Part shown: piece after piece, positions 6,234-32,000 of the stretch
Layout of the letters: each line of letters starts with the position of its first letter
Numbering within the stretch: position 1 is the stretch's first letter
Assembly (NCBI GenBank): GCA_031316235.1
Contig: JALDRA010000001.1
Location: forward strand, 1,650,001-1,682,000
DNA length: 32,000 bases
Source: Candidatus Scalindua sp.
GTDB lineage: Bacteria > Planctomycetota > Brocadiia > Brocadiales > Scalinduaceae
Direction: 5' to 3'
Program-made: the position numbers and the translations under genes
The notes under the pieces: model-generated
Told to the model about the DNA's origin: nothing
Databases searched by the model: none
What the model saw: only the letters and a program-made list of their open reading frames with translations

Positions 6234-6260
6234 AAAATCCAGCAAAGAATCTTCTACCTT

Positions 6261-10190: not shown

Positions 10191-10275
10191 AAAAACACAA
10201 TCTCCTCACCTCCCTCACTCGTTGAATCCAGTATCCGGGCGGTAACTCAACCCCTGATTTTAAGAATTATCTGTT

Positions 10276-10361: not shown

Positions 10362-10527
10362 TGTTTTGTATGCGGAACACAGAATCCTGATTCCTGATAG
10401 AAATTACAGCCGAGGGCACTATTCAGAGTGAAGAATTTATACCTATCCTAACGGCCTGTGCAAATTGCAAGCTCATGAGAGTGACACTTCGGATTCTCAC
10501 ACAATCGGAAAGGAGATAATTTATCAT

Positions 10528-11568
10528 ATGGACATTACCGAGTTACTCAAATTTACAAAGGAGCAGAACGCTTCAGATCTGCACATCAGTGCCGGGGAGC
10601 CTCCAGCCGTAAGAAAGGATGGTGACTTACAGAAACTGGATTCACCGCCCCTTGATAAAGAAACAGTACATACTGTCTTATATGAAATCCTCAATGACAA
10701 GCAACGTAAAATTTTTGAAGAAACAATGGAATTGGATTTTGCCATATCATTTGGCGAAACGTCTCGCTACAGGGTAAATGCCTTTATGCAAAGCAGAGGG
10801 GAAGGTATCGTATTCAGGACAATTCCAATCAAAATTCCAACCTTAACGCAATTAGGCCTTCCTGAAATCCTTGGAAGAATCGCAAAAAAAGAGAAGGGAC
10901 TGGTGCTCGTAACAGGGCCAACGGGCAGTGGCAAGTCTACCACCCTTGCAGGCATGATAGAGCTCGTCAATACCGAAGATAAAGTACACATAATCACAGT
11001 TGAAGACCCCATTGAATTTCAATATGAGCCCAAAAAAGCCCTCATAAATCAGAGAGAACTTGGTCCTCACACCAAGAGCTTTGCAAATGCATTGCGTTCA
11101 GCATTAAGGGAAGATCCTGATGTGATATTGGTTGGAGAAATGAGGGATCTGGAAACAATCTCTCTGGCCATAACTGCTGCTGAGACAGGCCACCTGGTTT
11201 TTGGCACTCTGCATACCTCAAGCGCGCCAAAAACAATTGACAGGATCATAGACGTCTTCCCTGCGGACCAGCAATCACAAATCAGGGCAATGTTTTCAGA
11301 ATCAATCCTTGCCGTTATCAGCCAGAATCTTGTAAAACGAAAAGATAGATCAGGCAGGGTGGCAGCTCTGGAAATAATGGTTGTAACCCCTGCCATAAGA
11401 AATCTCATCAGAGAAGGGAAGGTTGCCCAAATACACTCTGCCATACAAACGGGGAAACAATTTGGAATGCAGACGATGGATAATGCCTTACGAGAGCTTT
11501 ATGAAAACGGGATTGTTGAATTAGATGATATCCAGAAATTATTGACAAACCCCGATATCATAAGATGA
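10528..11568 (+). CDS. pilT: Type IV pilus retraction ATPase PilT
   Basis: It has Walker A GPTGSGKST, Walker B/Asp box ILVGEMRD, His box GHLVFGTLHT and the PilT signature AIRNLIREGK. AAGGAG lies 9-10 nt upstream of ATG 10528. The track start at 10465 is probably an upstream extension. Confidence 0.9.
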   Translation: MDITELLKFTKEQNASDLHISAGEPPAVRKDGDLQKLDSPPLDKETVHTVLYEILNDKQRKIFEETMELDFAISFGETSRYRVNAFMQSRGEGIVFRTIPIKIPTLTQLGLPEILGRIAKKEKGLVLVTGPTGSGKSTTLAGMIELVNTEDKVHIITVEDPIEFQYEPKKALINQRELGPHTKSFANALRSALREDPDVILVGEMRDLETISLAITAAETGHLVFGTLHTSSAPKTIDRIIDVFPADQQSQIRAMFSESILAVISQNLVKRKDRSGRVAALEIMVVTPAIRNLIREGKVAQIHSAIQTGKQFGMQTMDNALRELYENGIVELDDIQKLLTNPDIIR

Positions 11569-11630
11569 AATTTGCCGGTAATTCCTTGTCGAGAAATTTT
11601 ATTCACTATTTTTCAGGATTGATATAGCAA

Positions 11631-12737
11631 ATGGAAATGAGAAAAATTTTGGAAGAGATGGTAAGGCTAGATGCTTCAGACGTCTACCTGACAGTACATT
11701 TCCCACCTGCCTACCGTGTAGACGGCAAAATTACACCGAGTGAAACCCCTGCATTGAAGCCGTATGATACAGAGAGGCTTGCCTTTGATACCATGACAGA
11801 GAAGCAAAAGGCAATTTTCCTTGAAGGGAAAGAGATGAACCTTGCTCTCGGCCTTAAGTCTCTTGGCCGTTTTCGGATAAATGTGTTATATCAAAGAGGC
11901 AGTATCAGCCTTGTTATTCGCCAGATAAAGCTTGATATCAAAACTGTTGATGATTTACAGTTGCCTGAAGTCCTGAAAAGTGTCATAATGGCCAAAAGAG
12001 GCCTTGTCCTCGTAGTTGGCGGTACAGGTTCGGGAAAATCTACATCACTTGCGGCCATGATAGACTATAGAAATACAAACTCTCATGGACATATTATTAC
12101 GGTTGAAGATCCAATTGAATTTATTCACAAACATAAAAAGTCAATAATCACTCAAAGGGAGGTTGGGATGGATACCCTTTCCTTTGCTGATGCCTTAAAA
12201 AATACCCTGAGACAGGCACCAGATGTTATTCTCATAGGTGAGATCAGGGATACAAATACCATGGAATCTGCCATAACCTTTTCTGAAACAGGCCATCTTT
12301 GCTTAGGCACCCTACACGCAAACAATGCCAATCAGGCGATTGAACGTATTATCAATTTTTTCCCATCAGAAAGGCACGATCAAATATATCTTTTACTCTC
12401 GTTAAATCTCAATTCAATTATATCGCAGAGACTGATACCTACAATTGAAGGAGGAAGAGCCGCTGCCTTTGAAATATTAATAAACAGCCCAAGAATAAAA
12501 GATTTGCTGCTCAAAGGTGAAATTGAGTTACTGAAAGAAACCATGTCACAGGGCAACCAGGAAGGCATGTTGACATTTGACCAGTCAATATTTAATCTAT
12601 ACAGATCAAAAATAATAAGTTATGAGAATGCACTTGCGTATGCCGACAGTACAAATGATGTCCGGTTAAGGATAAAGACTGAGAATCTGGAACCAGAGGG
12701 CCAGCAGGTAAAACAAGCTTTTAAGATTAGGGAATAG
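11631..12737 (+). CDS. PilT/PilU-family hexameric ATPase (PilU-like paralog)
   Basis: It has Walker A GGTGSGKST, ILIGEIRD and GHLCLGTLHA. The AIRNLIRE position is replaced by PRIKDLLLKGE, as in PilU-like paralogs. Its stop TAG (12735-12737) abuts the ATG of the next gene. Confidence 0.8.
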   Translation: MEMRKILEEMVRLDASDVYLTVHFPPAYRVDGKITPSETPALKPYDTERLAFDTMTEKQKAIFLEGKEMNLALGLKSLGRFRINVLYQRGSISLVIRQIKLDIKTVDDLQLPEVLKSVIMAKRGLVLVVGGTGSGKSTSLAAMIDYRNTNSHGHIITVEDPIEFIHKHKKSIITQREVGMDTLSFADALKNTLRQAPDVILIGEIRDTNTMESAITFSETGHLCLGTLHANNANQAIERIINFFPSERHDQIYLLLSLNLNSIISQRLIPTIEGGRAAAFEILINSPRIKDLLLKGEIELLKETMSQGNQEGMLTFDQSIFNLYRSKIISYENALAYADSTNDVRLRIKTENLEPEGQQVKQAFKIRE

Positions 12738-14054
12738 ATGAGAGACGCTATAGAAGAAAAGATATTAGACCTCGCCACTAGAAAGGTCGATTCAGCAGAG
12801 GTGATTTACGAAGAAGGAGAATCCAGATCTATCAGCTTTGAAAATAATAAGCTGAAGTCCGTTCACACAAAGTCGATTAGAGGAGTTGGCTTGCGGGTGA
12901 TAAGAGAAGGAAAAATCGGTTTTTCCAGTACAACAGATTTCAGAGATCCCGAGAGGGTTGTCTCAAATGCAATTGAAAGTGCTAAATTTGGTCAGAAAGC
13001 ATATTTCGAGTTTCAATCAAAAACACAATACAAGGATGTGAAACTCTACGATGAAGAGGTAGTTAGTTATCCGATTGAAAAAGGGATCCAAATTGGCAGG
13101 GAGGCGATCGAAAAAGCTCTTACCGTTAACCCAAATTATGAATGTGGGGTTAGTATTGCAAAGGGTGTGGGAAAATATCGTTTACTTAACTCAAAGGGGC
13201 TGGACGTGAGTTCTCAATCTACGTCCATCGGCTTAGGCCTCGACATACTATTAGTGAGGGACAGTAGCCTCTTGTTGGTAAGCGAAGGAGAAAGCTCTAC
13301 AAAATTAATTAAAGATCTTGATAAGCATACCACAAAAGCCCTGAATAGTTTAAGATTGGCAGAAAAGGAGTGTAAGGTTGCAACTGCGGGTTATCCGGTT
13401 ATCTTTACTTCCAAGGCAATTGGAAATCTTCTCGCAACATTTGAAAGCGTATGTAATGGGAAGTTAGTGCAAAAAGGAGCCTCTCCTTTAACGGGAAAGC
13501 TTGGGGAAAAAATACTCGACGAAAGAATTACCATATATGACGACTCAACAATTGACTATGCAGATGGCAGTTTTATCTGTGATGATGAAGGAGTACCTGC
13601 ACAGAAAACCATACTCTATGAATCCGGAGTCCTGAGAAACTACATTTACGATTTACAAACAGCCGGAATTATGAATACAAAATCTACGGGTAATGGAACA
13701 AGAAGCTTTGCATCGCAGCCCTCTCCAGGAAACTCCAATATTGTCGTTGAAACGGGCAACATGAGTTTTGAAGCTATGATTAAGGACCTAAAGCGTGGTA
13801 TCCTTATCGATCAGGTTTTAGGTGGCGGCCAAAGTAACACGTTGGCGGGAGAATTCTCTGTCAATATTGATCTCGGGTATCTCGTTGATAACGGAGAAAT
13901 TGTGGGCAGGGTTAAGGATTGCATGATAGCTGGTAATGTATTTGACATTTTCAACAACCTGATAGCCATTGGAAACCAATCAGACTGGCATGGCTCTCTC
14001 AAGGCTCCTCCTTTCTATTTTCGATCGATAAATGTTGCAGGAAACAAAAGTTAA
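12738..14054 (+). CDS. pmbA: PmbA/TldE-type protein (TldD/PmbA family, no HExxxH)
   Basis: It is colinear with the TldD/PmbA fold (GVGLRVI..GKIGFSST; C-terminal GGGQSNTLAGEFSV...GNVFD) but lacks the metal-binding HExxxH. Confidence 0.8.
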   Translation: MRDAIEEKILDLATRKVDSAEVIYEEGESRSISFENNKLKSVHTKSIRGVGLRVIREGKIGFSSTTDFRDPERVVSNAIESAKFGQKAYFEFQSKTQYKDVKLYDEEVVSYPIEKGIQIGREAIEKALTVNPNYECGVSIAKGVGKYRLLNSKGLDVSSQSTSIGLGLDILLVRDSSLLLVSEGESSTKLIKDLDKHTTKALNSLRLAEKECKVATAGYPVIFTSKAIGNLLATFESVCNGKLVQKGASPLTGKLGEKILDERITIYDDSTIDYADGSFICDDEGVPAQKTILYESGVLRNYIYDLQTAGIMNTKSTGNGTRSFASQPSPGNSNIVVETGNMSFEAMIKDLKRGILIDQVLGGGQSNTLAGEFSVNIDLGYLVDNGEIVGRVKDCMIAGNVFDIFNNLIAIGNQSDWHGSLKAPPFYFRSINVAGNKS

Positions 14055-14513: not shown

Positions 14514-15824
14514 GTGCCAGACGAAGACAAGAGAAAAGAACAACTTGCACATAAAATTATAAAGGTGTGTCAACAAGGCAAAGTAACGATGAAAGAGTCA
14601 AATTCTGGCTGTCAAGGAGAGAGAGTTTCATCATCCCAAGATCCAGATCCGATGGATCAGGAAAACGAAGTCATGAAAACCAGAAATCTTGAGTCACTTG
14701 GTATTCTTGCAGGCGGTATTGCCCATGATTTCAACAACATCCTGACTATTATATCAGGTAATATAAGCCTCATCAGGATGCTGGTAACCCCTGAGGGAGA
14801 AATTGCAGGAAGATTGACGGAAATGGAAAAAGCGTTCTTGCGCGCAAAAACCTTGACCCGGCAGCTACTCACCTTTTCCACAGGAGGTGCTCCCGTAAAG
14901 AGAATAATTTGCATCTCCGAATTAATGCGTGATTCTGCTCTGCTTTCCCTGAAGGGGACAGACACCAGATGCTCATTTCATATACCGAATGAGCCATTTC
15001 CTGTTGAAGTTGATACCGAGCAGATGCAACAGGCAATAAACAACCTGATGATTAATGCTGTTCAAGCCCTGCCAGAAGGGGGAAACATTAAGGTAGCGAT
15101 AGAGAATGTAATCCTGGGCTCTGGGAACACTTTGCCATTGTCAAAAGGAAAGTATGTAAAGATAACCATACAAGATGATGGTATCGGTATCTCCCCCGAA
15201 AACATGCAAAAGGTTTTTGATCCATATTTCACAACCAAAGAGATTAACAGCGGTCTCGGGCTTTCCATCGCGTATTCCATCATCAAAAGACAAGGTGGTT
15301 ATATTACCGTCACATCTAAAAAGGAGGTTGGTACCACTTTTTCTCTCTACCTGCCTGCTATGCAACAAGGGATCAGTTTTGAGTCAGGTGTAAAAGAAAA
15401 GAGAGTAAGAGGTAAGACCGCATCGGTTATTGTTAAGAAAATTCTGGTAATGGATGACAAGGAAACGATTAGGAATATTGTGAAAGAGATGCTGATGTAT
15501 ATTTCTTGTGAAGTTGACGTAGCAAGTAACGGTGAAGAAGCCATAAAGCTCTACACAAAGGAGAAAGAATCCGGAAACCCTTTTGATGCAGTTATCATGG
15601 ATCTGATGATAGCAGAGGGTATGGGTGGTCAGGAAACAATAAAAAGGTTGAGAAAAATTGATCCAGATGTTAAAGCTGTTGTTTCGAGCGGTTATTCAAG
15701 TGACCCTGTTATGGCAAATTATGAAAAATACGGTTTTGCTGCCGTACTTCCGAAACCATATAGACTCGAAGACTTGAAGAAGATTTTGCAGAAAGTACTA
15801 GCAGATACTGACGAGCAGTACTGA
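14514..15824 (+). CDS. Cytoplasmic hybrid sensor histidine kinase (HisKA-HATPase-REC), no TM or sensor domain
   Basis: It has the H-box GGIAHDFNNILTII, the N-box QAINNLMINAVQA, the G-boxes DDGIGI and GLGLS, and a receiver domain (ILVMDDKETIRN...VIMDLMIAEGMGG...LPKP). The GTG start may lie slightly further downstream. Confidence 0.85.
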   Translation: MPDEDKRKEQLAHKIIKVCQQGKVTMKESNSGCQGERVSSSQDPDPMDQENEVMKTRNLESLGILAGGIAHDFNNILTIISGNISLIRMLVTPEGEIAGRLTEMEKAFLRAKTLTRQLLTFSTGGAPVKRIICISELMRDSALLSLKGTDTRCSFHIPNEPFPVEVDTEQMQQAINNLMINAVQALPEGGNIKVAIENVILGSGNTLPLSKGKYVKITIQDDGIGISPENMQKVFDPYFTTKEINSGLGLSIAYSIIKRQGGYITVTSKKEVGTTFSLYLPAMQQGISFESGVKEKRVRGKTASVIVKKILVMDDKETIRNIVKEMLMYISCEVDVASNGEEAIKLYTKEKESGNPFDAVIMDLMIAEGMGGQETIKRLRKIDPDVKAVVSSGYSSDPVMANYEKYGFAAVLPKPYRLEDLKKILQKVLADTDEQY

Positions 15825-20642: not shown

Positions 20643-21425
20643 ATGAACAAAAAAGAAGCTATTCAGGAACACAGTTTACAAAAACTCTCCGACAAAGACC
20701 TCCTTTTTCTCATAGAGAGTTACGTAACAAAACGGGATGACTATGAAAATATTGCCAACTTGATCAGGGGAGATCAAGACATTATCGGACAGATGATTGA
20801 TAATGACAGGATCTTCAATAAGGTAATGAATTGTACAAGTCAAATTCTGGGTATCTCTCCTTTTTTCATGTTTTCGCTATTTCTACGAAGATCATTCAGA
20901 GAGAAAATTTCCGATCCTGAATTTGTTGATCAGGCTATAGCTATCTTAAATAGTGACGACATTGTTATTCCCTGGAATAAGGAGAAACTGATCAGCCTGC
21001 TTGAAGACATGCAGGTTTCCAACTATATTGCAAATATGCTGGTAAAATTTTCCGAAAGTTCACAATTATTTAAAATAAGAGAGGGAGAAAATGAATCATA
21101 TCAATATATTGTAGACATGATTACAGACTCTCTGAAATCGGATACTATGAAAAAATTCTCCATTTACTGCCATATAGGAAACTATACCCTCTTTTTAACA
21201 GGAATGTTTTCAGAATATATCAAGTATAGATTTGAATACCGGCGCAGGCTTGTAGACAGGCAATATTACATAGATTTTGGAAAGGCATATTATGAATTGG
21301 CCTCTAAACATGCCAGTGCAAAAAAAAACAATCTGAGCAATACATTTTTGCAATTATCAAGGGGTTTTGAGATTTTTGCACAGGTTTTACATTTTATGAA
21401 CAGAAAGTATCTTTTCCCTAAATAG
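20643..21425 (+). CDS. Hypothetical protein (260 aa, no recognised domain)
   Basis: A long ATG-initiated ORF with protein-like composition, but I could recognise no motif. Confidence 0.55.
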   Translation: MNKKEAIQEHSLQKLSDKDLLFLIESYVTKRDDYENIANLIRGDQDIIGQMIDNDRIFNKVMNCTSQILGISPFFMFSLFLRRSFREKISDPEFVDQAIAILNSDDIVIPWNKEKLISLLEDMQVSNYIANMLVKFSESSQLFKIREGENESYQYIVDMITDSLKSDTMKKFSIYCHIGNYTLFLTGMFSEYIKYRFEYRRRLVDRQYYIDFGKAYYELASKHASAKKNNLSNTFLQLSRGFEIFAQVLHFMNRKYLFPK

Positions 21426-21538
21426 TGCTTGAACGGCAGAATGACCTGCCCTTCAAAGATAAAGCATGTCCTATCAAGAAAAAATTCATCTCATTCCTGA
21501 GTTTTAAGGCGCTTGCAAGAACGTAACTTCCCGTCTAT

Positions 21539-21587
21539 CAAACTCATCTCATAATAGTTTTCGGATAAAATCCGAGAAAAACCGGAG
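21539..21587 (+). repeat. Modular hairpin repeat, degenerate partial module A
   Basis: The sequence CAAACTCATCTCATAATAGTTTTCGGATAAAATCCGAGAAAAACCGGAG retains the central TCGGAT-AAA-ATCCGA hairpin. Confidence 0.7.
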
Positions 21588-21907
21588 TCTGTTCGTTTTC
21601 CACTATATGCAAAACTGACTTATACCGAAGGCCAGAGGGAGCTTTCCAATAAAGGCGAACAAAAAATGGGCAACCCTGAACGATGAACTCTGCACCTGTG
21701 AACGATTGCACAAATTGTCTATATTCTAAACAATTCCACCTGTTTTCCCTGAGCCTTCCCACCATCGACATGTTCCTGTTATCCTGTATGTAATATATCT
21801 GACGAAAAGCTCAGAGAACATTTTTCCGAGAAATGCAGTCTTCAAGAAAGTAATAGGGCAACTGGTGAAAGTACACCGGTGAAAATAGCACTATTTACCA
21901 TACTATC

Positions 21908-21923
21908 CGGCACTCAAAATGCT
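21908..21923 (+). promoter_or_regulatory. Sigma54-like promoter box cGGCAC-N5-aTGCt (GG-N10-GC)
   Basis: The sequence CGGCACtcaaaATGCT has GG at 21909-10 and GC at 21921-22. It lies immediately 5' of repeat copy 21928-21998 and 125 nt upstream of ATG 22048. Confidence 0.35.
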
Positions 21924-21927
21924 GGAG

Positions 21928-21998
21928 TATACTCATCTCATAATGGTTTTCGGATAAAATCCGAGATAAAATTGAGCGAGTATACCTTCACCATGATT
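21928..21998 (+). repeat. Modular hairpin repeat, module A plus first ~15 nt of B
   Basis: The sequence is TATACTCATCTCATAATGGTTTTCGGATAAAATCCGAGATAAAATTGAGCGAGTATACCTTCACCATGATT. It ends about 49 nt upstream of ATG 22048. Confidence 0.85.
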
Positions 21999-22047
21999 AT
22001 GAATAGGTAAAATTCCTTTCGGAACTTTTTATAAAGTGGGATAGCAA

Positions 22048-25000
22048 ATGGGAAAATCCAACAAATTAAATACCTCTTTCATTAAAATCACCATCGCAAA
22101 CAAGCTCCTGGTCTGGTTTTTTTTAGCGACATTATTTCCTCTCGTTATTGTCGGTACCGTATCCTATCACAACTACACAACAATACTGAAAAAGGAGGTG
22201 GAAAACAATCTGCTCATGCTTGTTGAGAATAAGGCCTTTCAGATTGAAACCTATGTAAAAGAGCGGAAGCGGGATCTTGTTTCCCTCTCACAGACTCCAA
22301 CCATTATCAAGGCACTGGAGAAATTCAATACCATTTACAGTAAGCAAGGTATAAATTCTCTGGAATATATGACCGCCGATAAAGAATTCAGGACCTTCCT
22401 GACCCACTTCAAGGAGACGTCTGAATATTATGATCTTTTCCTTATTTCTCCCTCTGGTGAAGTTGTTTTTACGGTAATTCACGAAGAAGATTTTGGATCA
22501 AACCTGGAAACGGGACATTATAAAGGATCTGAGCTGGCCAAAGTCTTCGCACGTGCACAAACTCTGTCTGAATCAGAAATTTCTGATTCCAAGTATTACG
22601 CAGCATCCGGTGACGGTGCAACATTCCTGGCCCTGCCAGTTCTTAACCGTGGAGTGTTCCTGGGAGTCGTCGCAATCCAGATGAGTTCGGATGAAATCTA
22701 TAAGCTGCTACAAAACAACACTGGCCTGGGAAATACCGGAGAAACCGTTCTCGCATCAAGATTTGATGATTACACATTATTGTTAACTACTCAGAGAAGA
22801 GATTCAGAAGAATTAATTATCAGAAAAGTTTCTCTGGAGTCTGACATGGCATTGCCGGTAAATAAAGCCATGCAGGGGGGAAATGGAATTGATGTTTACG
22901 TTGATTACCGAGGAAAAAAGGTACTGGCTGCATGGAGATATATACCCCATTTAAGATGGGGTATGGTGGTAAAAATTGATACAAAAGAGGCATTCTCCTC
23001 AATTTACCATCTCACATGGTGGTATTCGGTCTTGGGATGTGTTACTTTACCAGGAGTCATTTTTATCGCCTTACTTGTATCCAGGTCAATTTCTCGTCCG
23101 ATTAGTAAATTGACGAGAACTACGGAATTAATGGCTGATGGAGACTTGACCGTAAGGGCAGAGATAGAAAAAAGAGACGAAATTGGCAATCTTGCAAATA
23201 CTTTTAACGATATGATAGGTAAACTTGTGGAAGCCAGAGAGGGTGCCGAAAGACACAACCGGGCGCAAATGGGACAGACATTGTTAAACGTGAAGATGAG
23301 GGGTGAAAAGGATGTGGGAACGTTAGGAACTAATATTATCAGCTATCTGACTGAATTTCTCGAAGCACAGATTGGTGCAATATATATCATGAACAGTAAC
23401 AATCGATTAAAGATGATTGGTAGTTATGCTTATGAAAAGCGGAAAAACCTATCAAATGAATTTTTACCCGGTGAGGGTATTGTAGGTCAGGCAGCCCTGG
23501 AAAAGAGATATCTCCTTATTACCAATTGCCCGGAGGATTATATCAGCATTCATTCCAGCCTTGGAAAATCCGCCCCAAATAATATCCTGGTATATCCGCT
23601 TCAAATTGATAATGAGGTAAAAGGTGTAATTGAACTGGGAACATTACACGAATTTTCTGAAACAGACTTGCATTTTCTTGCACAGGTTCAAGAGGGAATT
23701 GCTATTGCTCTGAATTCTGTCTCTACTCTGGAACAACTGAGCTCTTTGCTCGAACAGACCCAGCTGCAGTCTGAAGAGATCCAGGCCAGGGAAGAGGAGC
23801 TGCGCAGCTACAATGAAGAACTGGAAAACCATACGAAGGCATTGCAGAAGTCTGAGGAGAGATTACAATCCCAGAAGAGAGAACTTCGGGCCTCCAATGA
23901 AGAGCTTGAGAAACAAAAATTGAACGCGGAAAAGAAGAATGAAGAGTTGGAAATTGCCCAGAGACTTATCGAAGAAAAGGCCAGGGATCTGGAGTTAAGC
24001 AGCAGGTATAAATCGGAATTCCTTGCTAACATGTCCCATGAACTCCGTACCCCTTTGAATAGCATACTCCTCTTATCCAGACTCCTTTCAGACAATAAAG
24101 ACCATGTCCTGACAGAAGATTATGTTGAATCTGCACGTTCCATTTATTCCTCCGGTTCAGAACTCCTGGAACTGATCAATGAAATACTTGATCTTTCCAA
24201 GGTTGAGGCAGGCAAGATGGAAATCAATATAGGGGATATGTATCTGCAGGATTTCTGCAATACAATGGAACGGGGATTCAAACCTCTTGCCAAGGAGAAA
24301 GGTTTATCCTTTAAAGTAAAAACCGGAGAAGGGCTGCCGCCCTCTATCCGAACAGATCGACAGCGAGTAGAACAGATAATTAAGAACTTTCTCTCAAATG
24401 CATTCAAGTTCACGAAAAATGGAAGTGTTACCCTACACATTTGCCGACCGGTAAAAGATCAAACAGAATGTACTCCTGAAAAGAGTGTAGTATTTTCCAT
24501 TATCGACACGGGAATGGGTATTCCAAAGGAAAAACAGAAATTGATATTTGAAGCATTTCAACAGGTAGACGGTACAATAAGTAGGAAATTTGGTGGCACA
24601 GGTCTTGGTCTTTCTATCTCAAAAGAGCTTGCAACTCTGCTCGGAGGAACAATTTATATGGAGAGCTTTGAGGGGAAGGGGAGTAGGTTTTCACTCCATC
24701 TGCCTGAAAAGAGGCTTTTGAAGGAGAAAATTTCTACTCCTCATCTCCCGGCAGGACATGAATTAAACAGACACACCAATAAACCTGATGAATGCCAGCC
24801 TTTCCAGTCGGAACCGGCAAACAATAAACAGGAGACTCTTGAAAAAATCAAGGATGACAGGTCAGAAATCTCTCCCAATGATAAATCAATTCTTATTATT
24901 GAGGATGACCCTAAATTTTTAAGAATCCTCAGTGATATCTCCCATGAACGGGGGTTTAAGTGTCTGGTTGCAGAAGATGGTAAAACAGGACTCCAATTAG

Positions 25001-26049
25001 CTGATTATTACAAACCAAGCGCCATAATACTTGATATTTTACTTCCCGATATCAGTGGTTTGACGGTAATGACCAGGCTGAAGGAGAATTTCTCTACACG
25101 CCATATTCCTGTTCACATCGTATCAGCGACCGACAATAAATCAGATGCCAGGAAAATGGGCGCTGTAAATTATTTAGAAAAACCTGTCAGCAAGGAAGAG
25201 CTCAGCCAGGTGTTTAATCAACTGAACAAGATAATTTCAAAAGACATTAAAGAGCTTCTTATTGTAGAGCATGACAGAAGTCAGGCAAAAGCTCTCATAC
25301 AATGTATTGGCGAAGAAGACGTGCACATAACGGTTGCTTCTACCGCTGCGGAAGCTTATGACCACGTTTTAACCGGAAATTTTGAATGTATTATCTTAGA
25401 TCTTCAACTTCCTGATACTTCCGGCGTTGCACTGTTAAGAAAAATCAGAACAAATGAAGATATCTGTTATCTTCCCATTATTGTTTACACGGGTAAGGAT
25501 ATTACGAAAGAAGAGAAAATCATAATAGACCAGTATGCAGAATCGATCATTGTCAAGGGTGTCGATTCTGATCGGAGACTCCTGGATGAGACGACACTTT
25601 TTCTTCACCGAGTAGAGGCAAACCTTCCAAAAGAGAAGCAGGAAGTTCTCAGGATGTTGCATGACAAGGAGGAGATCCTTTCGAATAAAAAAATTTTGGT
25701 GGTGGATGATGATATGCGAAATGTTTTTTCACTGAAAAAGGTGCTTGAAAGCAGGGGGATGCAGATACTGATAGGAAAAAACGGTAGAGAAGCGCTGGAA
25801 TACCTCGACAGGAACCCCGATATTGATTTGATACTTATGGATATCATGATGCCTGAGATGGACGGATATGAAGCCACGAGAAACATCCGGAAACAGCCGC
25901 GTTTTAAGGATCTCCCTGTAATTGCATTGACCGCAAATGCAATGAAGGGAGACCGGATTAAGTGTGTTGAAGCTGGTGCCTGCGATTACCTGGCAAAACC
26001 CATCGATATGGACAGACTGTTTTCAATGTTGAGAGTATGGTTGTATTGA
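22048..26049 (+). CDS. Hybrid sensor histidine kinase: TM-Cache-TM-HAMP-GAF-coiled coil-HisKA-HATPase-REC-REC-REC
   Basis: Two TM helices flank a Cache-like periplasmic region (YYDLFLISPSGEVVFT...). It has HAMP (RPISKLTRTTELMADGDLTVRAEIEKRDEIGNLANTFNDM), GAF (IGAIYIMNS...GEGIVGQAAL...VKGVIELGT) and a NEEL-type coiled coil (EELRSYNEELENH...ASNEELEKQ). It also has the H-box FLANMSHELRTPLNSI, the G-boxes DTGMGI and GTGLGLSI, and three receivers (IIEDD..ILDILLPD; IVEHD..ILDLQLPD; VVDDD..LMDIMMPEMDG..LAKP). Confidence 0.92.
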   Translation: MGKSNKLNTSFIKITIANKLLVWFFLATLFPLVIVGTVSYHNYTTILKKEVENNLLMLVENKAFQIETYVKERKRDLVSLSQTPTIIKALEKFNTIYSKQGINSLEYMTADKEFRTFLTHFKETSEYYDLFLISPSGEVVFTVIHEEDFGSNLETGHYKGSELAKVFARAQTLSESEISDSKYYAASGDGATFLALPVLNRGVFLGVVAIQMSSDEIYKLLQNNTGLGNTGETVLASRFDDYTLLLTTQRRDSEELIIRKVSLESDMALPVNKAMQGGNGIDVYVDYRGKKVLAAWRYIPHLRWGMVVKIDTKEAFSSIYHLTWWYSVLGCVTLPGVIFIALLVSRSISRPISKLTRTTELMADGDLTVRAEIEKRDEIGNLANTFNDMIGKLVEAREGAERHNRAQMGQTLLNVKMRGEKDVGTLGTNIISYLTEFLEAQIGAIYIMNSNNRLKMIGSYAYEKRKNLSNEFLPGEGIVGQAALEKRYLLITNCPEDYISIHSSLGKSAPNNILVYPLQIDNEVKGVIELGTLHEFSETDLHFLAQVQEGIAIALNSVSTLEQLSSLLEQTQLQSEEIQAREEELRSYNEELENHTKALQKSEERLQSQKRELRASNEELEKQKLNAEKKNEELEIAQRLIEEKARDLELSSRYKSEFLANMSHELRTPLNSILLLSRLLSDNKDHVLTEDYVESARSIYSSGSELLELINEILDLSKVEAGKMEINIGDMYLQDFCNTMERGFKPLAKEKGLSFKVKTGEGLPPSIRTDRQRVEQIIKNFLSNAFKFTKNGSVTLHICRPVKDQTECTPEKSVVFSIIDTGMGIPKEKQKLIFEAFQQVDGTISRKFGGTGLGLSISKELATLLGGTIYMESFEGKGSRFSLHLPEKRLLKEKISTPHLPAGHELNRHTNKPDECQPFQSEPANNKQETLEKIKDDRSEISPNDKSILIIEDDPKFLRILSDISHERGFKCLVAEDGKTGLQLADYYKPSAIILDILLPDISGLTVMTRLKENFSTRHIPVHIVSATDNKSDARKMGAVNYLEKPVSKEELSQVFNQLNKIISKDIKELLIVEHDRSQAKALIQCIGEEDVHITVASTAAEAYDHVLTGNFECIILDLQLPDTSGVALLRKIRTNEDICYLPIIVYTGKDITKEEKIIIDQYAESIIVKGVDSDRRLLDETTLFLHRVEANLPKEKQEVLRMLHDKEEILSNKKILVVDDDMRNVFSLKKVLESRGMQILIGKNGREALEYLDRNPDIDLILMDIMMPEMDGYEATRNIRKQPRFKDLPVIALTANAMKGDRIKCVEAGACDYLAKPIDMDRLFSMLRVWLY

Positions 26050-26155
26050 TTAACTATTGAGGATTTGTTAGCGAGATCATAAGTTCAGAGTTGGAATATC
26101 TGTCTCAGGAACCTGCTCTCCCTTGTCTTATTATTTCTACAGGGGAATCTGATAG

Positions 26156-26297
26156 ATATACTCATCTCATACTGGATTTCGGATAAAATCCGGGAAAAAA
26201 ATGGAGCGAGAAAAGTCCTCGGCACCTTTTGTCCGGGGATACCTTCACCAAGATTTGGTTTCCGGTAAAACCGAAAACCAAATCGGTTTTAGTATAC
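26156..26297 (+). repeat. Modular hairpin repeat, full copy (modules A+C+B)
   Basis: It matches the type copy with an extra 28-nt GC-rich module C (26211-26238, AAAAGTCCTCGGCACCTTTTGTCCGGGG). It ends 27 nt upstream of ATG 26325. Confidence 0.9.
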
Positions 26298-26324
26298 TTT
26301 CGTAACTTTATTCATAGACAAATC

Positions 26325-28256
26325 ATGAGCAGAGAGAATGATATCGTATCTCATAAAAACTCACAACAAAAATTGATGTATCTTTTCGTAGGGATGCTGT
26401 CCGTTTTTATAGTTTTTCTCATTGCTTCTTACCTTGTCTCTTCAAAAGCTCTTAAATCCAAAGAACATGATAGTGTATTATTAAATGTTGCCGGTCGGCA
26501 AAGAATGTTGTTACAAAAATATACGAAAGAATTTATCAATGGATTAATTCCCATCCAGGTTCGTAACAGCACACTTAAGACAGCGGAGATAGCAGCAATT
26601 CAAATATCTGAGTATCGGAAAGCATACACCAAAAATGTTGTTGAAAAATTAAAAAGTGAAGCTCCAGATATACACCCGAACATGAATTACACAGCTATAA
26701 AAGGAGGAACCCCTCACCCGGCAACTTTCACAAAAGAGGCATCAGGTACCACAGGCAAGAAAGCTGATTTCAGACATGAGATTCTAAGCAAGTGGAACAT
26801 AAACAAAGAGAAAGGATTAAGAACAGCCTTTGAGAAAGAGGCATTCGATTATTTATGTGCAAATCCGACAGCATCTTTCTCCCGTTTTATGATGGTTGAT
26901 GGCATCTATACGCTACGTTACGCAACCCCTGATTCAGCAGTTTCTGATGAATGTGTACATTGTCATAACTCCCATGAAGAGAGTCCGAAAAATGATTTTA
27001 AGCCTGGAGACATGATGGGGATACTTGTGGTCAGCATTCCCATAGGAACGTTCAGCAGGCAGGCAGAGGCATTCTTTGAAAGTTCAAGTGATGGGACAAT
27101 CGGTTCTGATAACCTTTCCAGGACAAAGCAGGTTTTTGAGATGACACTTGATGCACTTATCAACGGTGGTAAGGTACCAGTGGATACGAACATGACGACC
27201 TTTGCTTCAATAGCCCCATCAACCAGCATTGAGATAACAAGTAAATTGAAAATGATCGAACAGCAGTGGGTCAGGATACAGGAGGATTTCAAGAACCTTC
27301 TAATTGTTGAACCAAATTCAACTGAGTATGCCGACGCTTATACACGTGCTTATAACAATACTACCGGTACCGTGGATACAATGGACGCAGTTGTTCATTT
27401 GATGCAGAAGGGTAGTCAGCAGAGACTTTATAAAGTAAAGGCCTTACAAACTTTTCATTTTGTGGGAGTCTTGTTCTGCTTGATTATCGTGTCTGTTTAT
27501 CTGAAGATAATCCGCCCTCTTGAATTACACAGGGAAACCCTTGAAATACAAAAAGAAGGATTGAGATCGCTCAATCTTGAACTCTCAAAAGCTCTCGATC
27601 GAGATAAACGACAAAACTGGTTAAGGATTGGCCTGGCAGGCTTAAACGATCGGATGCGTGGAGCAGAAGATACAACCTCTCTCAGCCAAGACATAATCGG
27701 CTACCTTGCAGGATACCTCAATGTTCAGGTAGGTACAATCTATCTGGCAGAAGACAACTACTCGTTGTGCCTGTCAGGAAGTTACGCCATCAAAAACTTT
27801 GATTCACTCCCCAAAGAGATCTATTTTGGAGAGGGTTTGATTGGACAGGTTGCCTTAAAGAAAAAGATTCAAATAATTACCAACATACCTCAGGGCTACC
27901 GTGAAATCAATTCAGGGCTAGCAATACTTTCACCCAGAAACCTTTTGATTGTTCCGTTTTTATATGAAAATTGCGTTAAGGGTGTAATCGAATTTGGTTC
28001 GGTCCATGAATTTACCAATAAACACCTCGACTTTATGAATCAGGTTGCAGACAGTATTGCAATTGCCATTAATACCGTTCAATCTCGCCAATGCCTGAAA
28101 GACCTGTTAGAGGAAACCCAGGCACAGGCAGAAAAACTTCAGGCTGGAAATGAAGAGTTGATAAACGTGAATCAAGAACTGGAGAGACATTCGAATACAC
28201 AGCAAATGACCGGAACAGATTCATGGAAACTCTTGAAAGGCACGTATGATGAATGA
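26325..28256 (+). CDS. Transmitter-less periplasmic sensor: TM - PilJ/NarX-like helical region with inserted heme-c (CxxCH, DUF3365/Tll0287-like) domain - TM - GAF - truncated coiled coil
   Basis: I prefer ATG 26325 (MSRENDIV...) because the track start 26229 lies inside repeat copy 26156-26297. It has the AGRQRMLLQKYTKEF signature and CVHCH at 26952-26966 in the context RYATPDSAVSDECVHCHNSHEESPKNDFKPGDMMGILVVSIP. It has a second TM helix (FHFVGVLFCLIIVSVYL) and a GAF domain paralogous to that of the 1333-aa kinase. It ends at ...QAEKLQAGNEELINVNQELERH... with no HisKA, MCP, GGDEF or other output domain. Confidence 0.8.
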   Translation: MSRENDIVSHKNSQQKLMYLFVGMLSVFIVFLIASYLVSSKALKSKEHDSVLLNVAGRQRMLLQKYTKEFINGLIPIQVRNSTLKTAEIAAIQISEYRKAYTKNVVEKLKSEAPDIHPNMNYTAIKGGTPHPATFTKEASGTTGKKADFRHEILSKWNINKEKGLRTAFEKEAFDYLCANPTASFSRFMMVDGIYTLRYATPDSAVSDECVHCHNSHEESPKNDFKPGDMMGILVVSIPIGTFSRQAEAFFESSSDGTIGSDNLSRTKQVFEMTLDALINGGKVPVDTNMTTFASIAPSTSIEITSKLKMIEQQWVRIQEDFKNLLIVEPNSTEYADAYTRAYNNTTGTVDTMDAVVHLMQKGSQQRLYKVKALQTFHFVGVLFCLIIVSVYLKIIRPLELHRETLEIQKEGLRSLNLELSKALDRDKRQNWLRIGLAGLNDRMRGAEDTTSLSQDIIGYLAGYLNVQVGTIYLAEDNYSLCLSGSYAIKNFDSLPKEIYFGEGLIGQVALKKKIQIITNIPQGYREINSGLAILSPRNLLIVPFLYENCVKGVIEFGSVHEFTNKHLDFMNQVADSIAIAINTVQSRQCLKDLLEETQAQAEKLQAGNEELINVNQELERHSNTQQMTGTDSWKLLKGTYDE

Positions 28257-29121
28257 GCTGAGCAATGACGAAAAAATAGAATGCGACCACTTATTACAGG
28301 CAATATTTTTGAAATATGGATATGATTTTAGAAATTATTCAAAATCCTCTATGAGAAGACACATATACAACAGGCTTTCCAGGTATAATTTAAAAACATT
28401 TTCAGAAATGCAGAATACAGTACTCCATGACAAACAATTCTTTGAAAAATTACTCATGGACATGACTATAAATGTAACGGAAATGTTCCGGGACCCTAAC
28501 TTTTTCAAAATGTTCAGGAAATGTGTTATCCCTGACCTGAAAAAAAAACCTTTTGTAAAAATCTGGCATGCAGGTTGTTCCAGTGGAGAGGAAGTCTATT
28601 CCATGGCAATTCTTTTGCGGGAAGAAGGTTTCAGGAATTTTAGAGTCTATGCATCCGACATGAATGAGGCTGTCATTCATAAAGCGAAAAAAGGTGTCTT
28701 TCCCATTGCCAAAATGAAAGGTTATACCCGGAATTACAGAGAGGCAGGAGGGCACGCATCCTTTGCCGATTACTATACTGCTCGATACGACTTCGCTATT
28801 GTGGATAGTACTCTCAGAAAAAATATTACCTTCTTTCATCATAACCTGGTGAACGGGGAAATTTTTGGTGAAATGGATTTGATAGTCTGCAGGAATGTAC
28901 TCATTTACCTTGACAAAAATTTACAAAATCGTGTCTTCAACCTCTTTTTTGAGAGTTTGAGTCCCGGAGGTTACTTATGCATCGGCTCAAAAGAAACCGT
29001 TCGGTTTTCCACCTGTTCTGACAGATTCGCAGATGTAGTACGTGAGGAAAAAATATATAGAAAAAATGATTTCTCTTCAATCCATTTGAATAGTGAGCTG
29101 CTTCTACCAGTCAAAACCTAA
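28246..29121 (+). CDS. cheR: CheR-type protein-glutamate O-methyltransferase (orphan)
   Basis: It has an N-terminal helical CheR domain (LLQAIFLKYGYDFRNYSKSSMRRHI) and the SAM-binding signature FRDPNFF...KIWHAGCSSGEEVYSMAILL...VCRNVLIYL. Its start ATGATGAATGA overlaps the stop of the upstream sensor by 11 nt. Confidence 0.88.
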   Translation: MMNELSNDEKIECDHLLQAIFLKYGYDFRNYSKSSMRRHIYNRLSRYNLKTFSEMQNTVLHDKQFFEKLLMDMTINVTEMFRDPNFFKMFRKCVIPDLKKKPFVKIWHAGCSSGEEVYSMAILLREEGFRNFRVYASDMNEAVIHKAKKGVFPIAKMKGYTRNYREAGGHASFADYYTARYDFAIVDSTLRKNITFFHHNLVNGEIFGEMDLIVCRNVLIYLDKNLQNRVFNLFFESLSPGGYLCIGSKETVRFSTCSDRFADVVREEKIYRKNDFSSIHLNSELLLPVKT

Positions 29122-29305
29122 ACCAGAAATACTCTTTCCCTTCTCATTTTTCAGACTTTTTGTCTGCCAGAAATCCTTCTATAAAAAACTTTTACTCTAC
29201 ACGTTGTTAATGAATTCCGACTCACAATCAGAATAGCCCTTTGTTTGCAGGCAGCCTGTATTGAGCAAAACCCTTACTTTGTTTTGTACAAAAATCATCA
29301 TTAAT

Positions 29306-30688
29306 TCAAACCGGTTTGTCATCGCCCTCAGATTCAGAAAGTACCTGGATTCCGACTATTGGTTGCGATCCATCTGCTGTCCGTCTGACAACAAATCTCT
29401 TAATTTTCAGAAAATGATCCAGTATAAAATTGACTTCAAGTGGTTCTGAAGGGGAATCACCTTGCAGACAGACAATTTTTCCATTACTCAGCCTGGAGAC
29501 ATCCTCTGTCTGTAAGGCCAGACCTTCACTGGAGTAATCACAAATGGTTGCTTTGGTAAGTGCTGTTTTGCACTCATCCAGATAAAGATTCAAAGAGGGT
29601 TGTTTCCACCTCCAGGGCTGTCGGGGGAATATACGTTTATCAGCAGCACAAACAGAATTATCTTTTGATCCATAAAGTACCCCATGTACCTGTTTAAACC
29701 ACCAGGAATGTAAATCTAACAACTCTTTAACAATACGATTACGATCTGCATTGCGAGTTTCAGCATGAAACAAGTCTACGTTTGAGGTAATCCATATTTT
29801 CAGGAAATGGTCTTCCAGTATCCTGAAAGGTACTACGTCTGGTTGTTTCTGGAATTTAAAAACCGGCATGTTATCTCCTATACACATATTTGTTGAGGGC
29901 TGACTTGGGTCTCTACCAAAGGTATATGGCTGATAATTAACTTTGTTGTCTACGATCATTAACCAGCAGTTTGGGGTTTGTGTATAAAACCTGACCTTAG
30001 CTCCAACATTTGGATAGCTTCTAAGCCTGTCACATGCGTGGGCATAGTCGCTAAAAACCCTTTGATGGAAAAAGGGATCAGATGGTTGCACTTTTGTTCT
30101 ATCGGTATTCATAATCTTTGCCGCATCTGAAGCATTGCTCTCAAGTAATGTTCTGAATACCGCTGAAGCTTGAAGTGCATCAAGGAGCAGTATCTTAACA
30201 TCCAGACCGCAAGCTATCTTTTCATCAAGAGAAGAGAGCAAATCGTCCAGATGAACAATTTCAGAATGTGCGATACCGATAAGCCACAACCTTTTCTCGG
30301 CATTTTTTATCGCATGGTATATATCATATTGTGCATCTTTACGGGAACCGTATATATTCGTAAGCCCGCAGTTTGCTGCAGAACCAATGAGCTGATTGGA
30401 AGTAGTTAAAAATTTTTCTATGGATGTTCTATTATCATTAATAAGCTGATTTGTGGGAAAAAGAGCCTCTTTAAAAATACCTTTCAAATGTCCGAATATC
30501 TCCCACCAGAAAAATGCATACTCAATGATGTGAATACACATTATTGCGCTAAGGACAAGGAGCAGGTGCTTGACTATTTCAGGTATGTTGTGCCAGTAAC
30601 GCGGTAACAGAATGTAGAGTGCGACGGTGGTAAGAAAAAAGAAACATACGATCAACATTCGTACAAAGGGTCTTGGTTTCTCGCTCAT
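29306..30688 (-). CDS. Membrane protein: 2 TM helices - unknown ~230-aa domain - C-terminal PilZ domain
   Basis: GGGGAGGG lies 7 nt upstream of ATG 30688. The TM helices are MLIVCFFFLTTVALYILL and LLLVLSAIMCIHIIEYAFFWW. The C-terminus has PilZ motifs KRIFPRQPW (RxxxR, about 29614-29634) and DYSSEG (DxSxxG, about 29522-29540). The middle domain (RLWLIGIAHSEI...VRFYTQTPNCWLMIVDNKVNYQPYTFG...) is vaguely PLD-fold/DUF5919-like but has no HKD motif. Confidence 0.75.
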   Translation of the reverse strand: MSEKPRPFVRMLIVCFFFLTTVALYILLPRYWHNIPEIVKHLLLVLSAIMCIHIIEYAFFWWEIFGHLKGIFKEALFPTNQLINDNRTSIEKFLTTSNQLIGSAANCGLTNIYGSRKDAQYDIYHAIKNAEKRLWLIGIAHSEIVHLDDLLSSLDEKIACGLDVKILLLDALQASAVFRTLLESNASDAAKIMNTDRTKVQPSDPFFHQRVFSDYAHACDRLRSYPNVGAKVRFYTQTPNCWLMIVDNKVNYQPYTFGRDPSQPSTNMCIGDNMPVFKFQKQPDVVPFRILEDHFLKIWITSNVDLFHAETRNADRNRIVKELLDLHSWWFKQVHGVLYGSKDNSVCAADKRIFPRQPWRWKQPSLNLYLDECKTALTKATICDYSSEGLALQTEDVSRLSNGKIVCLQGDSPSEPLEVNFILDHFLKIKRFVVRRTADGSQPIVGIQVLSESEGDDKPV

Positions 30689-31123: not shown

Positions 31124-32000
31124 TCATCTATTCTGCTGTGCATTCTCAACCATAAGCTTCGCAATAGACTTGGCAAATGAAATAGAGTCTTTTGGTCTTG
31201 ATCCTTCCACCAAGAGCGCCTGATCATACAGGAGATCAGCATACTCCTTCAGGACCTCGCTTTTTTTATCTTTCTCAAAAATTCCGTTCATGGCTTCGAA
31301 GAGTGGATGTTCCGGGTTGATTTCAAGAATCCTTTTTCTTCTGGGAACGTCCTGACCCATTGATATTAAGAGCTTTTCCATCTGCGGATCCATTTCACCT
31401 TCGTCTGCAACAAGGCAACAGGCGGAATCTTTCAACCTCCCGGAAAGCCTTACCTCCTTCAGTTCTTCTTCCAGGTGGTCTTGGATAAGCTTAAGGATCT
31501 TTCCATATTTTTTCTGTGCCTTTTCCTTTTCATCCTTTTTCGATTCATCCAGAGTAATATCACCCTTAATAACAGACTTGAATTTCTTACCCTTGAATTC
31601 AAACTGACCCATGACAATATCGTCAATATCATCCAAGAGAATAAGGACTTCGTAGTCTTTATCTCTTAAGGCCTCTAGGTAGGGAGACTTAAACACTTCA
31701 TCTCGTGATGTCCCGGTAATATAGTAAATGTCTTCCTGCCCCTCTTTCATGTTGTCTAAGTACTCCTGGAGTGTTCTGAAGGTGTCCTTATCTGTTTTCG
31801 TTGAAGGAAAAAGGAGGAGTTCTCCAATCGACTCCCGCTTGGAAAAATCAAAATGAATACCTTCTTTTAAAATCCTGCCGAATTCTTTATAAAATTTGAG
31901 GTACTTATCAAAATCATCCTTTTTCATATCACTGAGAGTGTCGAGCACTTTCTTGGTGATACTGTTCTTTATCGTTTCAACCTGCCGATTATTCTGCAGC
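31124..32000 (-). CDS. htpG: Molecular chaperone HtpG (Hsp90), C-terminal part; N-terminus beyond the window
   Basis: The sequence ...DIYYITGTSRDEVFKSPYLEALRDKDYEVLILLDDIDD...LSGRLKDSACCLVADEGEMDPQMEKLL...RILEINPEHPLFEAM... is colinear with the HtpG middle and C-terminal domains. The reading frame stays open to position 32000. Confidence 0.93.
   Translation of the reverse strand, partial: LQNNRQVETIKNSITKKVLDTLSDMKKDDFDKYLKFYKEFGRILKEGIHFDFSKRESIGELLLFPSTKTDKDTFRTLQEYLDNMKEGQEDIYYITGTSRDEVFKSPYLEALRDKDYEVLILLDDIDDIVMGQFEFKGKKFKSVIKGDITLDESKKDEKEKAQKKYGKILKLIQDHLEEELKEVRLSGRLKDSACCLVADEGEMDPQMEKLLISMGQDVPRRKRILEINPEHPLFEAMNGIFEKDKKSEVLKEYADLLYDQALLVEGSRPKDSISFAKSIAKLMVENAQQNR

Follow-up and report, generated by a model that had tools for sequence, protein, structure and literature searches.

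Three consecutive genes of the anammox planctomycete Candidatus Scalindua sp., encoding a hybrid histidine kinase, a heme-c/GAF sensor without kinase domains and a CheR methyltransferase, lie in one direction in the window analysed here, a stretch of 32,000 nucleotides (nt) of assembly GCA_031316235.1 (contig JALDRA010000001.1, positions 1,650,001 to 1,682,000 of the forward strand). The interpretation favoured here, with modest confidence, is that kinase, sensor and cheR constitute a kinase-methylation module of the RsbK/RsbM type (or CfcA type) that includes an extra, kinase-less receptor acting on the adjacent kinase. On the best reading CheR would methylate glutamates of a coiled coil, in the sensor or in the adjacent kinase. 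We infer that CheR would methylate glutamates in the signalling helix (S-helix) of the kinase and, more weakly, that the shortened S-helix of the sensor (the stub) would be a substrate too and the sensor would act on the kinase, the sensor being most likely a methyl-accepting accessory receptor that modulates its neighbour. The kinase-cheR pair belongs to a known type; a kinase-less heme/GAF co-sensor retaining the stub appears to have gone undescribed so far. The genes concerned are as follows.

22048..26049, + strand: hybrid kinase gene, 1333 aa, from the list of open reading frames (ORFs).
26325..28256, + strand: sensor gene, 643 aa, kinase-less; the ORF may open at 26229.
28246..28256, + strand: 11-nt overlap of sensor stop and cheR start, ATGATGAATGA, read from the sequence.
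28246..29121, + strand: cheR, 291 aa, RsbM-type CheR methyltransferase.

The ATG at 26325 was chosen as the start of the sensor in keeping with the N-termini of its orthologues, which do not support the upstream TTG at 26229, and a Shine-Dalgarno-like hexamer, GAAAGG, lies 5 nt 5′ of the cheR ATG. Searches by tblastn with reference proteins gave no match to a kinase core, REC, MCP-signalling domain, CheW or CheB past 28256 and none to a methyl-accepting chemotaxis protein (MCP), CheW or CheB across the whole window, with Pfam on most of the larger ORFs in agreement. The initial annotation of the locus had described a sensor paralogous to the GAF/S-helix part of the kinase, stopping shortly after the helix and overlapping a complete CheR by 11 nt, with no MCP, CheW or CheB in the window and no kinase remnant past 28256, and in all of this it was borne out. 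BLASTP aligns sensor residues 381-627 with kinase residues 336-600 (267 columns, 38% identity, E 4e-49), with the strings as quoted there, the sensor ends 21 residues past its 29-residue EEL-heptad helix with no HisKA, HATPase or MCPsignal (PF00015) match in Pfam, and the CheR carries both CheR_N (aa 16-63) and the SAM domain (aa 76-253, E 6.6e-45). The Pfam families that it had named for checking (CheR_N and CheR SAM domain, GAF_2, Tll0287-like PF11845 and PilJ) all matched.

The affiliation of the CheR points away from chemotaxis. Its top PDB match is the Bacillus subtilis CheR 5FTW and NCBIfam returned only a sub-threshold generic CheR match, but comparison with individual relatives was more telling. 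Against the RsbM orthologue of a complete Bacillus sigB cluster (L101) the window CheR reaches 49% identity (264 aa, E 7e-95), and at a locus holding both a kinase-linked CheR and a CheW-MCP-CheR-CheB cluster (L040) its identity is 55% to the kinase-linked CheR but 28% to the CheR of the cluster. With 49-55% identity to RsbM and kinase-linked CheRs against 28% to the CheR of a che cluster, it falls into a kinase-dedicated RsbM-type clade, supporting the view, at the level of sequence, that this is not a chemotaxis CheR. The Bacillus locus (NZ_CP093325.1 4520452-4539243, Bacillus sp. N5-665) was reached by tblastn of CheR against plasmid records and contains a sigB cluster of STAS (rsbV), anti-sigma kinase (rsbW), sigB, ferritin-like (dps) and REC-PP2C (rsbY) genes with, divergently, an 896-aa CHASE3-GAF-HisKA-HATPase-REC kinase (rsbK; His505, Asp827) followed by a 285-aa CheR (rsbM); H505 and D827 agree with the published RsbK numbering. 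The record, a 5.5-Mb 'plasmid p1' of N5-665 with hardly any annotation in PLSDB, is evidently a replicon of chromosome size.

Gene contexts are in keeping with this affiliation. Beyond the immediate orthologues, the nearest CheR relatives (62-69% identity) are encoded in operons with the order dCache-HAMP-GAF-HisKA-HATPase-REC kinase, cheR, cheB and REC-REC-GGDEF. A profile scan of JGI metagenomes with the CheR gave at least 600 pattern-matched stretches, at least 588 of which encode CheR relatives, and contexts were counted in the best 80 loci of the listed relatives (48-63% identity) by blastp against reference domain pieces, the count of upstream genes being limited to the 38 loci with at least 4.5 kb upstream. 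A GAF-S-helix hybrid kinase stood directly 5′ of cheR in 28 of these 38 loci, three had another kinase before cheR with the GAF kinase one gene further away, one had a GAF-only protein before cheR and six had nothing within 400 nt. The cheR gene overlapped the stop of the preceding kinase or sensor gene, or started no more than 30 nt from it, in 29 of 39 measurable loci, and CheB came directly after cheR in 51 of 68, while MCP-like genes were present in three of the best 80 loci and CheW in one. The placing of CheR outside classical chemotaxis by the initial annotation was therefore upheld, whereas its description as an orphan holds for the window locus but not for its relatives, where CheB normally adjoins cheR. 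The CheB proteins of these kinase-cheR-cheB operons (L014-L019, L020-L099) consist of the methylesterase domain only (about 190-215 aa) and have no N-terminal REC as in chemotaxis CheB, and the downstream genes encode REC-GGDEF or REC-(PAS)-kinase proteins. A plasmid of Brucella anthropi carries an annotated set of CHASE3-GAF hybrid kinase, CheR, CheB and REC-HWE kinase. When genome contigs were searched with the CheR only, a single distant locus was recovered (L013), encoding a CheB-CheR fusion kinase; this is one example of NEEL heptads lying C-terminal to a CheR domain, as the initial annotation had stated.

The kinase upstream belongs with the partners of such CheRs. Its Pfam architecture is dCache_1-HAMP-GAF-HisKA-HATPase_c-3xREC, its identity to the RsbK orthologue of Bacillus sp. 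N5-665 is 34% across 745 aa, and by sequence it classifies as an RsbK/CfcA-type hybrid histidine kinase. Its domains and S-helix are placed as follows.

Kinase, aa: dCache_1 47-308, HAMP 343-394, GAF 421-555, S-helix 567-655.
Kinase, aa, continued: HisKA 655-722 (His664), HATPase_c 770-888, three REC about 941-1333.
23746..24012, + strand: kinase S-helix, LLEQTQLQSEEIQAREEELRSYNEELENH, a linker, the second repeat LQSQKRELRASNEELEKQ and a helix into the H-box.

The presumed target of methylation is this Glu-rich helix between GAF and kinase core. Across 41 distinct CheR-linked kinases the post-GAF consensus begins L1 L2 x x T5 Q6 x Q8 [AS]9 E10 E11 L12 and continues x x Q15 Q16 E17 E18 L19 R20 Q21 x N23 E24 E25 L26 E27 E28 Q29, with, in most cases, a linker and a further 'LQxQQEELRxxNEELEE' repeat behind it, such that EE pairs recur at positions 10/11, 17/18 and 24/25 and Leu at 12/19/26/33. 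As we read the sequence, these leucines and the A/Q/N residues three before the first three of them would form the heptad core, with the EE pairs facing outward. The window kinase agrees with this consensus, its EE pairs being at 576/577, 583/584 and 590/591 and its anchor-to-His distance 97 residues (6 mod 7). In ascending order the distances from L1 to His are 55, 76, 83, 97 and 104 residues in five kinases (window, L072, L012, L009 and L014) and the distance is 83 in the RsbK orthologue; since all six are 6 mod 7, the S-helix would keep its register into the DHp and vary in length only by whole heptads. In the RsbK orthologue the helix reads LLHESQAMTEELQVQSEELQTQAEELQMQAEELR, and its second and third EE pairs have residues 439 and 446, respectively, as their second Glu, at S-helix motif positions 18 and 25. 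Methylation by RsbM has reportedly been mapped to E439 and E446 (Chen et al. in 2012).

The sensor runs from a first transmembrane segment (TM1) through a periplasmic PilJ/Tll0287-like heme-c module, a second segment (TM2), a helical linker without HAMP and a GAF domain to the S-helix stub and a variable tail, with the features below.

26952..26966, + strand: heme-c attachment motif CVHCH (C210, C213, H214), within the Tll0287-like match.
27666..28070, + strand: sensor GAF, aa 448-582 (Pfam GAF_2, E 6.2e-15).
28104..28190, + strand: S-helix stub, aa 594-622, first repeat only, LLEETQAQAEKLQAGNEELINVNQELERH, aligned to the kinase S-helix.
28155-28157, + strand: candidate methyl-accepting Glu E611, S-helix motif position 18.
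28176-28178, + strand: candidate methyl-accepting Glu E618, S-helix motif position 25.
28194..28253, + strand: C-terminal tail of the sensor including DSWKLL, non-conserved.

Pfam matched PilJ at aa 43-77 (E 3.7e-9) and the Tll0287-like family PF11845 at aa 79-239 (E 1.3e-14), and CVHCH is invariant in alignments of 41 homologues. In the AlphaFold2 model the periplasmic part has a pLDDT of mostly 80-96, with Tll0287 (5B82) as the top PDB match in Foldseek (E 1.2e-3, prob 1.00) and the sensor domain of a Geobacter heme-c chemoreceptor (3B42) as the second, while phmmer of the sensor against PDB sequences gave no match and NCBIfam nothing. Sequence and model together thus assign to the sensor a Tll0287-like c-type heme sensor domain with predicted heme binding. 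Its GAF is 42-44% identical to that of the neighbouring kinase. In sensors of the Scalindua type HAMP is absent (aa about 398-425, window about 27520-27600; alignment columns 421-441) and the helical linker from TM2 to GAF is 20 residues shorter, while HAMP is present in the kinase-less orthologues of Brocadiaceae and in the full-length kinases P0006 and P0007. CcsA/ResB-type cytochrome c maturation genes lie at 2258-4028 (+) in the window and are of relevance to the need of the sensor for periplasmic heme-c attachment.

Conservation within the sensor falls on the stub. Across four Scalindua orthologues the share of invariant columns is 58% in the stub, 59% in the GAF, 42% in the periplasmic domain and 0% in the tail. 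All four stubs have E603, E611 and E618 (motif positions 10, 18 and 25) in common but differ at positions 11, 17 and 24, where K, E and Q occur. A further suggestion of the initial annotation, that DSWKLL might resemble the xWxxF pentapeptide by which CheR is tethered to MCPs, did not survive this comparison; because the tail has no invariant column DSWKLL is no conserved tether, no conserved aromatic pentapeptide ends any of the four orthologues, the tail tryptophan occurs in the window sequence only and orthologue P0001 stops 6 residues past the helix with no tail.

The truncated form of the sensor is not peculiar to the window. Kinase-less orthologues of 629-643 aa and 63-72% identity (P0001, P0002 and P0004) come from other Scalindua assemblies, and an intact stub with an adjoining cheR is found in at least three such assemblies, confirming that the sensor is no locally frameshifted kinase and that its adjacency to cheR is conserved (L001-L004). 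The triad of kinase (1333-1342 aa), sensor and cheR is kept in L001-L003 and also in L004 despite both flanks of the latter being different, such that the truncation appears to be old and maintained. Sensor and cheR are separated by 39 nt in L001 and overlap by 4 nt in L004, which rules out a sensor-CheR fusion broken by a frameshift. More distant kinase-less orthologues (603-613 aa, 40-43% identity) are found in Brocadiaceae. The question of whether orthologues are fused to HisKA was answered in two ways, P0006 and P0007 (about 1115 aa) having the same heme module on a complete HAMP-GAF-coil-HisKA-HATPase-REC protein, with cheR coming after P0007 but not after P0006, and the Scalindua orthologues being kinase-less with cheR kept at the locus (L001-L004). 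More than 100 MCPs (PF00015) share the periplasmic module of the sensor only, at 45-52% identity. On one Brocadiales contig (L005, 708-3434) a kinase-less Tll0287-HAMP-GAF sensor is preceded at a distance of a few kb by a CheW gene and a Tll0287-heme MCP, an arrangement suggesting that one sensory module feeds both chemotaxis and kinase pathways in a single genome.

Similar proteins recur outside this group. One metagenomic locus (L072) encodes a 4HB-GAF hybrid kinase, a 787-aa GAF-only protein ending …LLEQTQLQAEELRVQQEELQQTNEELEERARLFYERGQAT, a cheR overlapping it by 4 nt, and cheB. This GAF-only protein shares 50% identity with the kinase beside it and 35% with the window sensor, while the GAF/stub module of the window sensor matches many kinases at about 44% identity and its neighbour no better, patterns which imply that the two sensors arose independently; a recent duplication of the neighbour kinase is ruled out as the origin of the window sensor by the same figures. 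The order kinase-sensor-cheR, with the sensor gene interposed, is common to the window, L001-L004 and L072. A GAF/stub fragment at a contig edge has the same type of ending as in L072, 16 nt before cheR (L067), and a 643-aa dCache-HAMP-GAF protein ending in the coil precedes a kinase-cheR-cheB-GGDEF set (L019). At L100, picked without reference to CheR, a complete CHASE3-GAF-stub gene lies 78 nt upstream of a dCache-HAMP-GAF-S-helix kinase. Kinase-less sensors are constantly paired with a complete GAF hybrid kinase. HMMER, run exhaustively with sensor residues 425-643, gave 12,029 relatives, and endings were surveyed in the best 146 50%-cluster representatives spanning the stub. The main mode was an end 720-760 residues further on, that is, full hybrid kinases; 37 of the 146 end no more than 80 residues past the first repeat, some of these being fragments or frameshifts, and about 20-25 seem to end naturally, behind repeat 1 or repeat 2.

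In the mechanism proposed, CheR would be dedicated to the Glu-rich S-helix joining GAF to DHp in this kinase family and not to MCPs. The sensor would detect a redox or gas signal by means of its periplasmic c-type heme (Tll0287-like), and the signal would pass through TM2 and GAF into the 29-residue stub, which corresponds to the first 'QxEELxxxNEELE' repeat of the kinase helix and would retain the conserved candidate methyl-accepting positions. Having no transmitter, the sensor most probably acts on the adjacent three-REC hybrid kinase, either by hetero-oligomerisation of the GAF/S-helix parts of the two proteins or by methylation-dependent docking of a kinase REC onto the stub. The second route would parallel an RsbK construct of the same architecture, lacking HK-CA-REC, which bound the RsbK REC in a two-hybrid assay with binding strengthened by co-expressed RsbM (PMC4574943). 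Methylation by CheR would in either case set the gain and, as there is no CheB in the window, may fix a set-point rather than serve reversible adaptation. A broader proposal, possible but in our view doubtful, is that the first S-helix repeat, about 30 residues past GAF, forms an autonomous methyl-accepting module and that sensor-GAF-stub proteins are widespread unrecognised receptors supplying RsbK/CfcA-type kinases with additional inputs, in this case a heme-c redox or gas signal, through CheR-controlled, methylation-dependent docking via REC or S-helix. Were it correct, these proteins would be the counterpart of mixed MCP arrays in a system that needs no CheA and in which two-component kinases are the target of adaptation.

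Several observations weigh against the module with an accessory receptor. The S-helix motif fails the canonical MCP consensus [ASTG][ASTG]xx[EQ][EQ]xx[ASTG][ASTG], and the GAF and stub of the sensor were modelled with low pLDDT (30-63), so that the model was used there for secondary structure alone. Four of the kinase-less orthologues (P0005 and P0008-10) end directly after GAF and have no stub, and these precede one or two long GAF hybrid kinases on contigs whose visible part holds no cheR; it follows that a co-sensor role needs no stub. As the window sensor is equally close to many kinases, it bears no signal of co-evolution with its neighbour, and since L019, L072 and L067 came via CheR, the adjacency of cheR in them is subject to ascertainment bias. 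Reversible adaptation cannot be claimed at a locus with no CheB, and for this as for any kinase-less member both methylation and interaction are putative.

The stub-less orthologues bear most directly on a rather unlikely but serious alternative, in which the sensor is a co-sensor or inhibitor working by GAF/coiled-coil heterodimerisation, its stub doing no more than dimerise, and CheR methylates the kinase alone from a gene whose position is accidental. That such orthologues adjoin kinases with no cheR visible fits this, as does the occurrence of the nearest CheR relatives (62-69%) directly behind a kinase with no sensor between, suggesting that the sensor gene was inserted into a kinase-cheR pair, and the stub, with N at 'a' and L at 'd', suits a parallel dimeric coil. 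It accounts less readily for the shared end point of the stubs in independently derived sensors, just behind the first EEL repeat or the second, for the invariant stub positions being those that match residues 439 and 446 of the RsbK orthologue, and for the translational coupling of cheR to the sensor in the window, L004 and L072. The wide use of the heme module by MCPs raises another explanation, that CheR is an ordinary chemotaxis methyltransferase for Scalindua MCPs with the Tll0287 heme domain, linked to the GAF sensor through co-regulation. Over 100 MCPs with the module at 45-52% identity, the proximity of CheW and such an MCP to a related sensor in L005, and a window that holds neither CheB nor any other che gene to contradict a chemotaxis role all agree with it; it is nonetheless improbable, given that more than 80 CheR relatives occur in kinase-cheR-cheB operons without CheA and with MCP and CheW almost absent, that the window CheR has 28% identity to the CheR of a che cluster against 49-55% to RsbM and kinase-linked CheRs, and that the homologous pair in Pseudomonas putida has no role in chemotaxis (PMC4951495).

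It would be very surprising if the sensor were merely a decaying remnant of a Tll0287-HAMP-GAF hybrid kinase resembling P0006 or P0007, with a functionless stub. Full-length kinases with the same N-terminal module do exist, one of them followed by cheR, and between the same genome pairs the sensor module is 69-83% identical compared with 83-94% for the kinase module, the sensor being the faster-evolving. Against decay, however, at least four genomes have the ORF intact (63-72% identity), stub and GAF are equally well conserved, no kinase remnant persists at the locus and the same kinase-less architecture recurs independently.

Around the three genes little else bears on their regulation. For 21400-29500 the promoter scan (16 hits, 17.6 expected) and the terminator scan (8 hits, 6.9 expected) stayed at the level of shuffled sequence, Rfam and tRNA scans of the window were empty, and three small ORFs (1609-1971, 5762-6235 and 792-1379) had no Pfam match. 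Convergent on cheR is a 460-aa membrane ORF without a Pfam family (29306-30688, -), the C-terminal 124 aa of which have a sub-threshold PilZ match only (E 0.099) and RxxxR- and DxSxxG-like motifs; a link to cyclic di-GMP is conceivable, given the REC-GGDEF genes in related operons. In the window htpG (HSP90; 31124-31948, -) is inverted and separated from cheR by the 460-aa ORF, whereas in Scalindua sp. AMX11 (L001; 11149-13059, +) it comes after cheR on the same strand, indicating a local rearrangement downstream of cheR. Further away, a HisKA-HATPase-REC hybrid kinase of 436 aa in which no sensor domain can be recognised (14514-15824, +) is surrounded by TldD/PmbA pairs and two PilT/T2SSE-type ATPases (8829-14054), and a FeeM-like N-acyl amino acid synthase is encoded at 4179-5138 (-).

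Methylation-based adaptation is textbook knowledge for chemotaxis and has barely been studied for two-component kinases, and to our knowledge RsbK/RsbM is the only case of two-component kinase methylation with biochemical support. The kinase-cheR(-cheB) operon is nevertheless very common in environmental bacteria and its EEL-heptad helix strikingly conserved, and a subset of its proteins has shed the kinase yet kept exactly the repeat presumed to be methyl-accepting. If the stubs are methylated and talk to the neighbouring kinase, this would be a new way of merging several inputs into one phosphorelay, and a methylated stub of about 30 residues past GAF would offer a minimal, tractable substrate for the recognition of non-MCP targets by CheR/RsbM. 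For anammox bacteria the arrangement suggests that a major hybrid kinase receives redox or gas signals by way of heme.

Among known systems the CheB-CheR fusion PAS kinases (L013) have EEL/NEEL heptads (…TTEELQAASDEVQSANEELQSINEELETSKEELESANEEL…) in one polypeptide with CheR and CheB domains; their coil differs in being C-terminal to the enzymes with no GAF, and their CheR domain is 30-33% identical to the window CheR. The likeness to MCPs is that the window sensor is a membrane receptor that lacks an enzymatic output and has a Glu-rich helix presumed to be the substrate of a CheR, with the Tll0287 heme-c periplasmic sensor common to it and to more than 100 anammox MCPs. In contrast to MCPs, however, it has no MCPsignal domain and no CheA or CheW partner, its motif is off the MCP methylation consensus, its S-helix is a parallel two-helix structure rather than an antiparallel four-helix bundle, and the window CheR is in another clade.

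Closer are two systems of hybrid kinases. The P. putida operon cfcABCDE opens with CfcA, a CHASE3/GAF hybrid kinase with three REC domains (PMC4951495, PMC6849547, bioRxiv 10.1101/2024.11.25.625174), and cfcB and cfcC encode a CheR/CheB pair without a role in chemotaxis (PMC4951495). Metagenomic relatives of the window CheR show the same kinase-cheR-cheB-(REC-GGDEF or REC-HK) order, but the window has neither cheB nor a REC-GGDEF or other downstream regulator. We found no demonstration of CfcA methylation in the literature, and a kinase-less co-sensor is not described for cfc. In Bacillus cereus the S-helix of RsbK (CHASE3-HAMP-GAF-S-helix-HK-CA-REC) is methylated by RsbM, an orphan CheR-like methyltransferase of the same operon, with a regulatory effect shown experimentally and a set-point role rather than reversible adaptation proposed (PMC4574943). 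The methylation of a coiled coil by CheR, put forward as a new idea in the initial annotation, is thus already established for RsbK/RsbM (PMC4574943) and the operon type known from cfcABCDE (PMC4951495). In all, 127 RsbK-like kinases in 10 phyla have been reported (PMC4574943), and the genomic association of RsbK with CheR was noted earlier by de Been and colleagues, according to the citation of their work in PMC12848376.

The window resembles RsbK/RsbM in its hybrid kinase (extracytoplasmic sensor, GAF, S-helix, HisKA, HATPase and REC), in the heptad-spaced EE pairs that the S-helix has both in the window kinase and in the RsbK orthologue, and in an operon CheR without a paired CheB. It differs in that the window kinase has dCache and three REC domains in place of CHASE3 and one, and in the additional kinase-less receptor, with the first S-helix repeat only, between kinase and cheR; no receptor of this kind was found described in the RsbK/RsbM literature examined. 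The window also has no RsbY PP2C, RsbV/W or sigma-B, with no SpoIIE/PP2C, STAS, anti-sigma or sigma-70 family gene among its Pfam-scanned ORFs, and because these are absent what it shares with RsbK/RsbM is not the sigma-B pathway but the kinase-methylation core.

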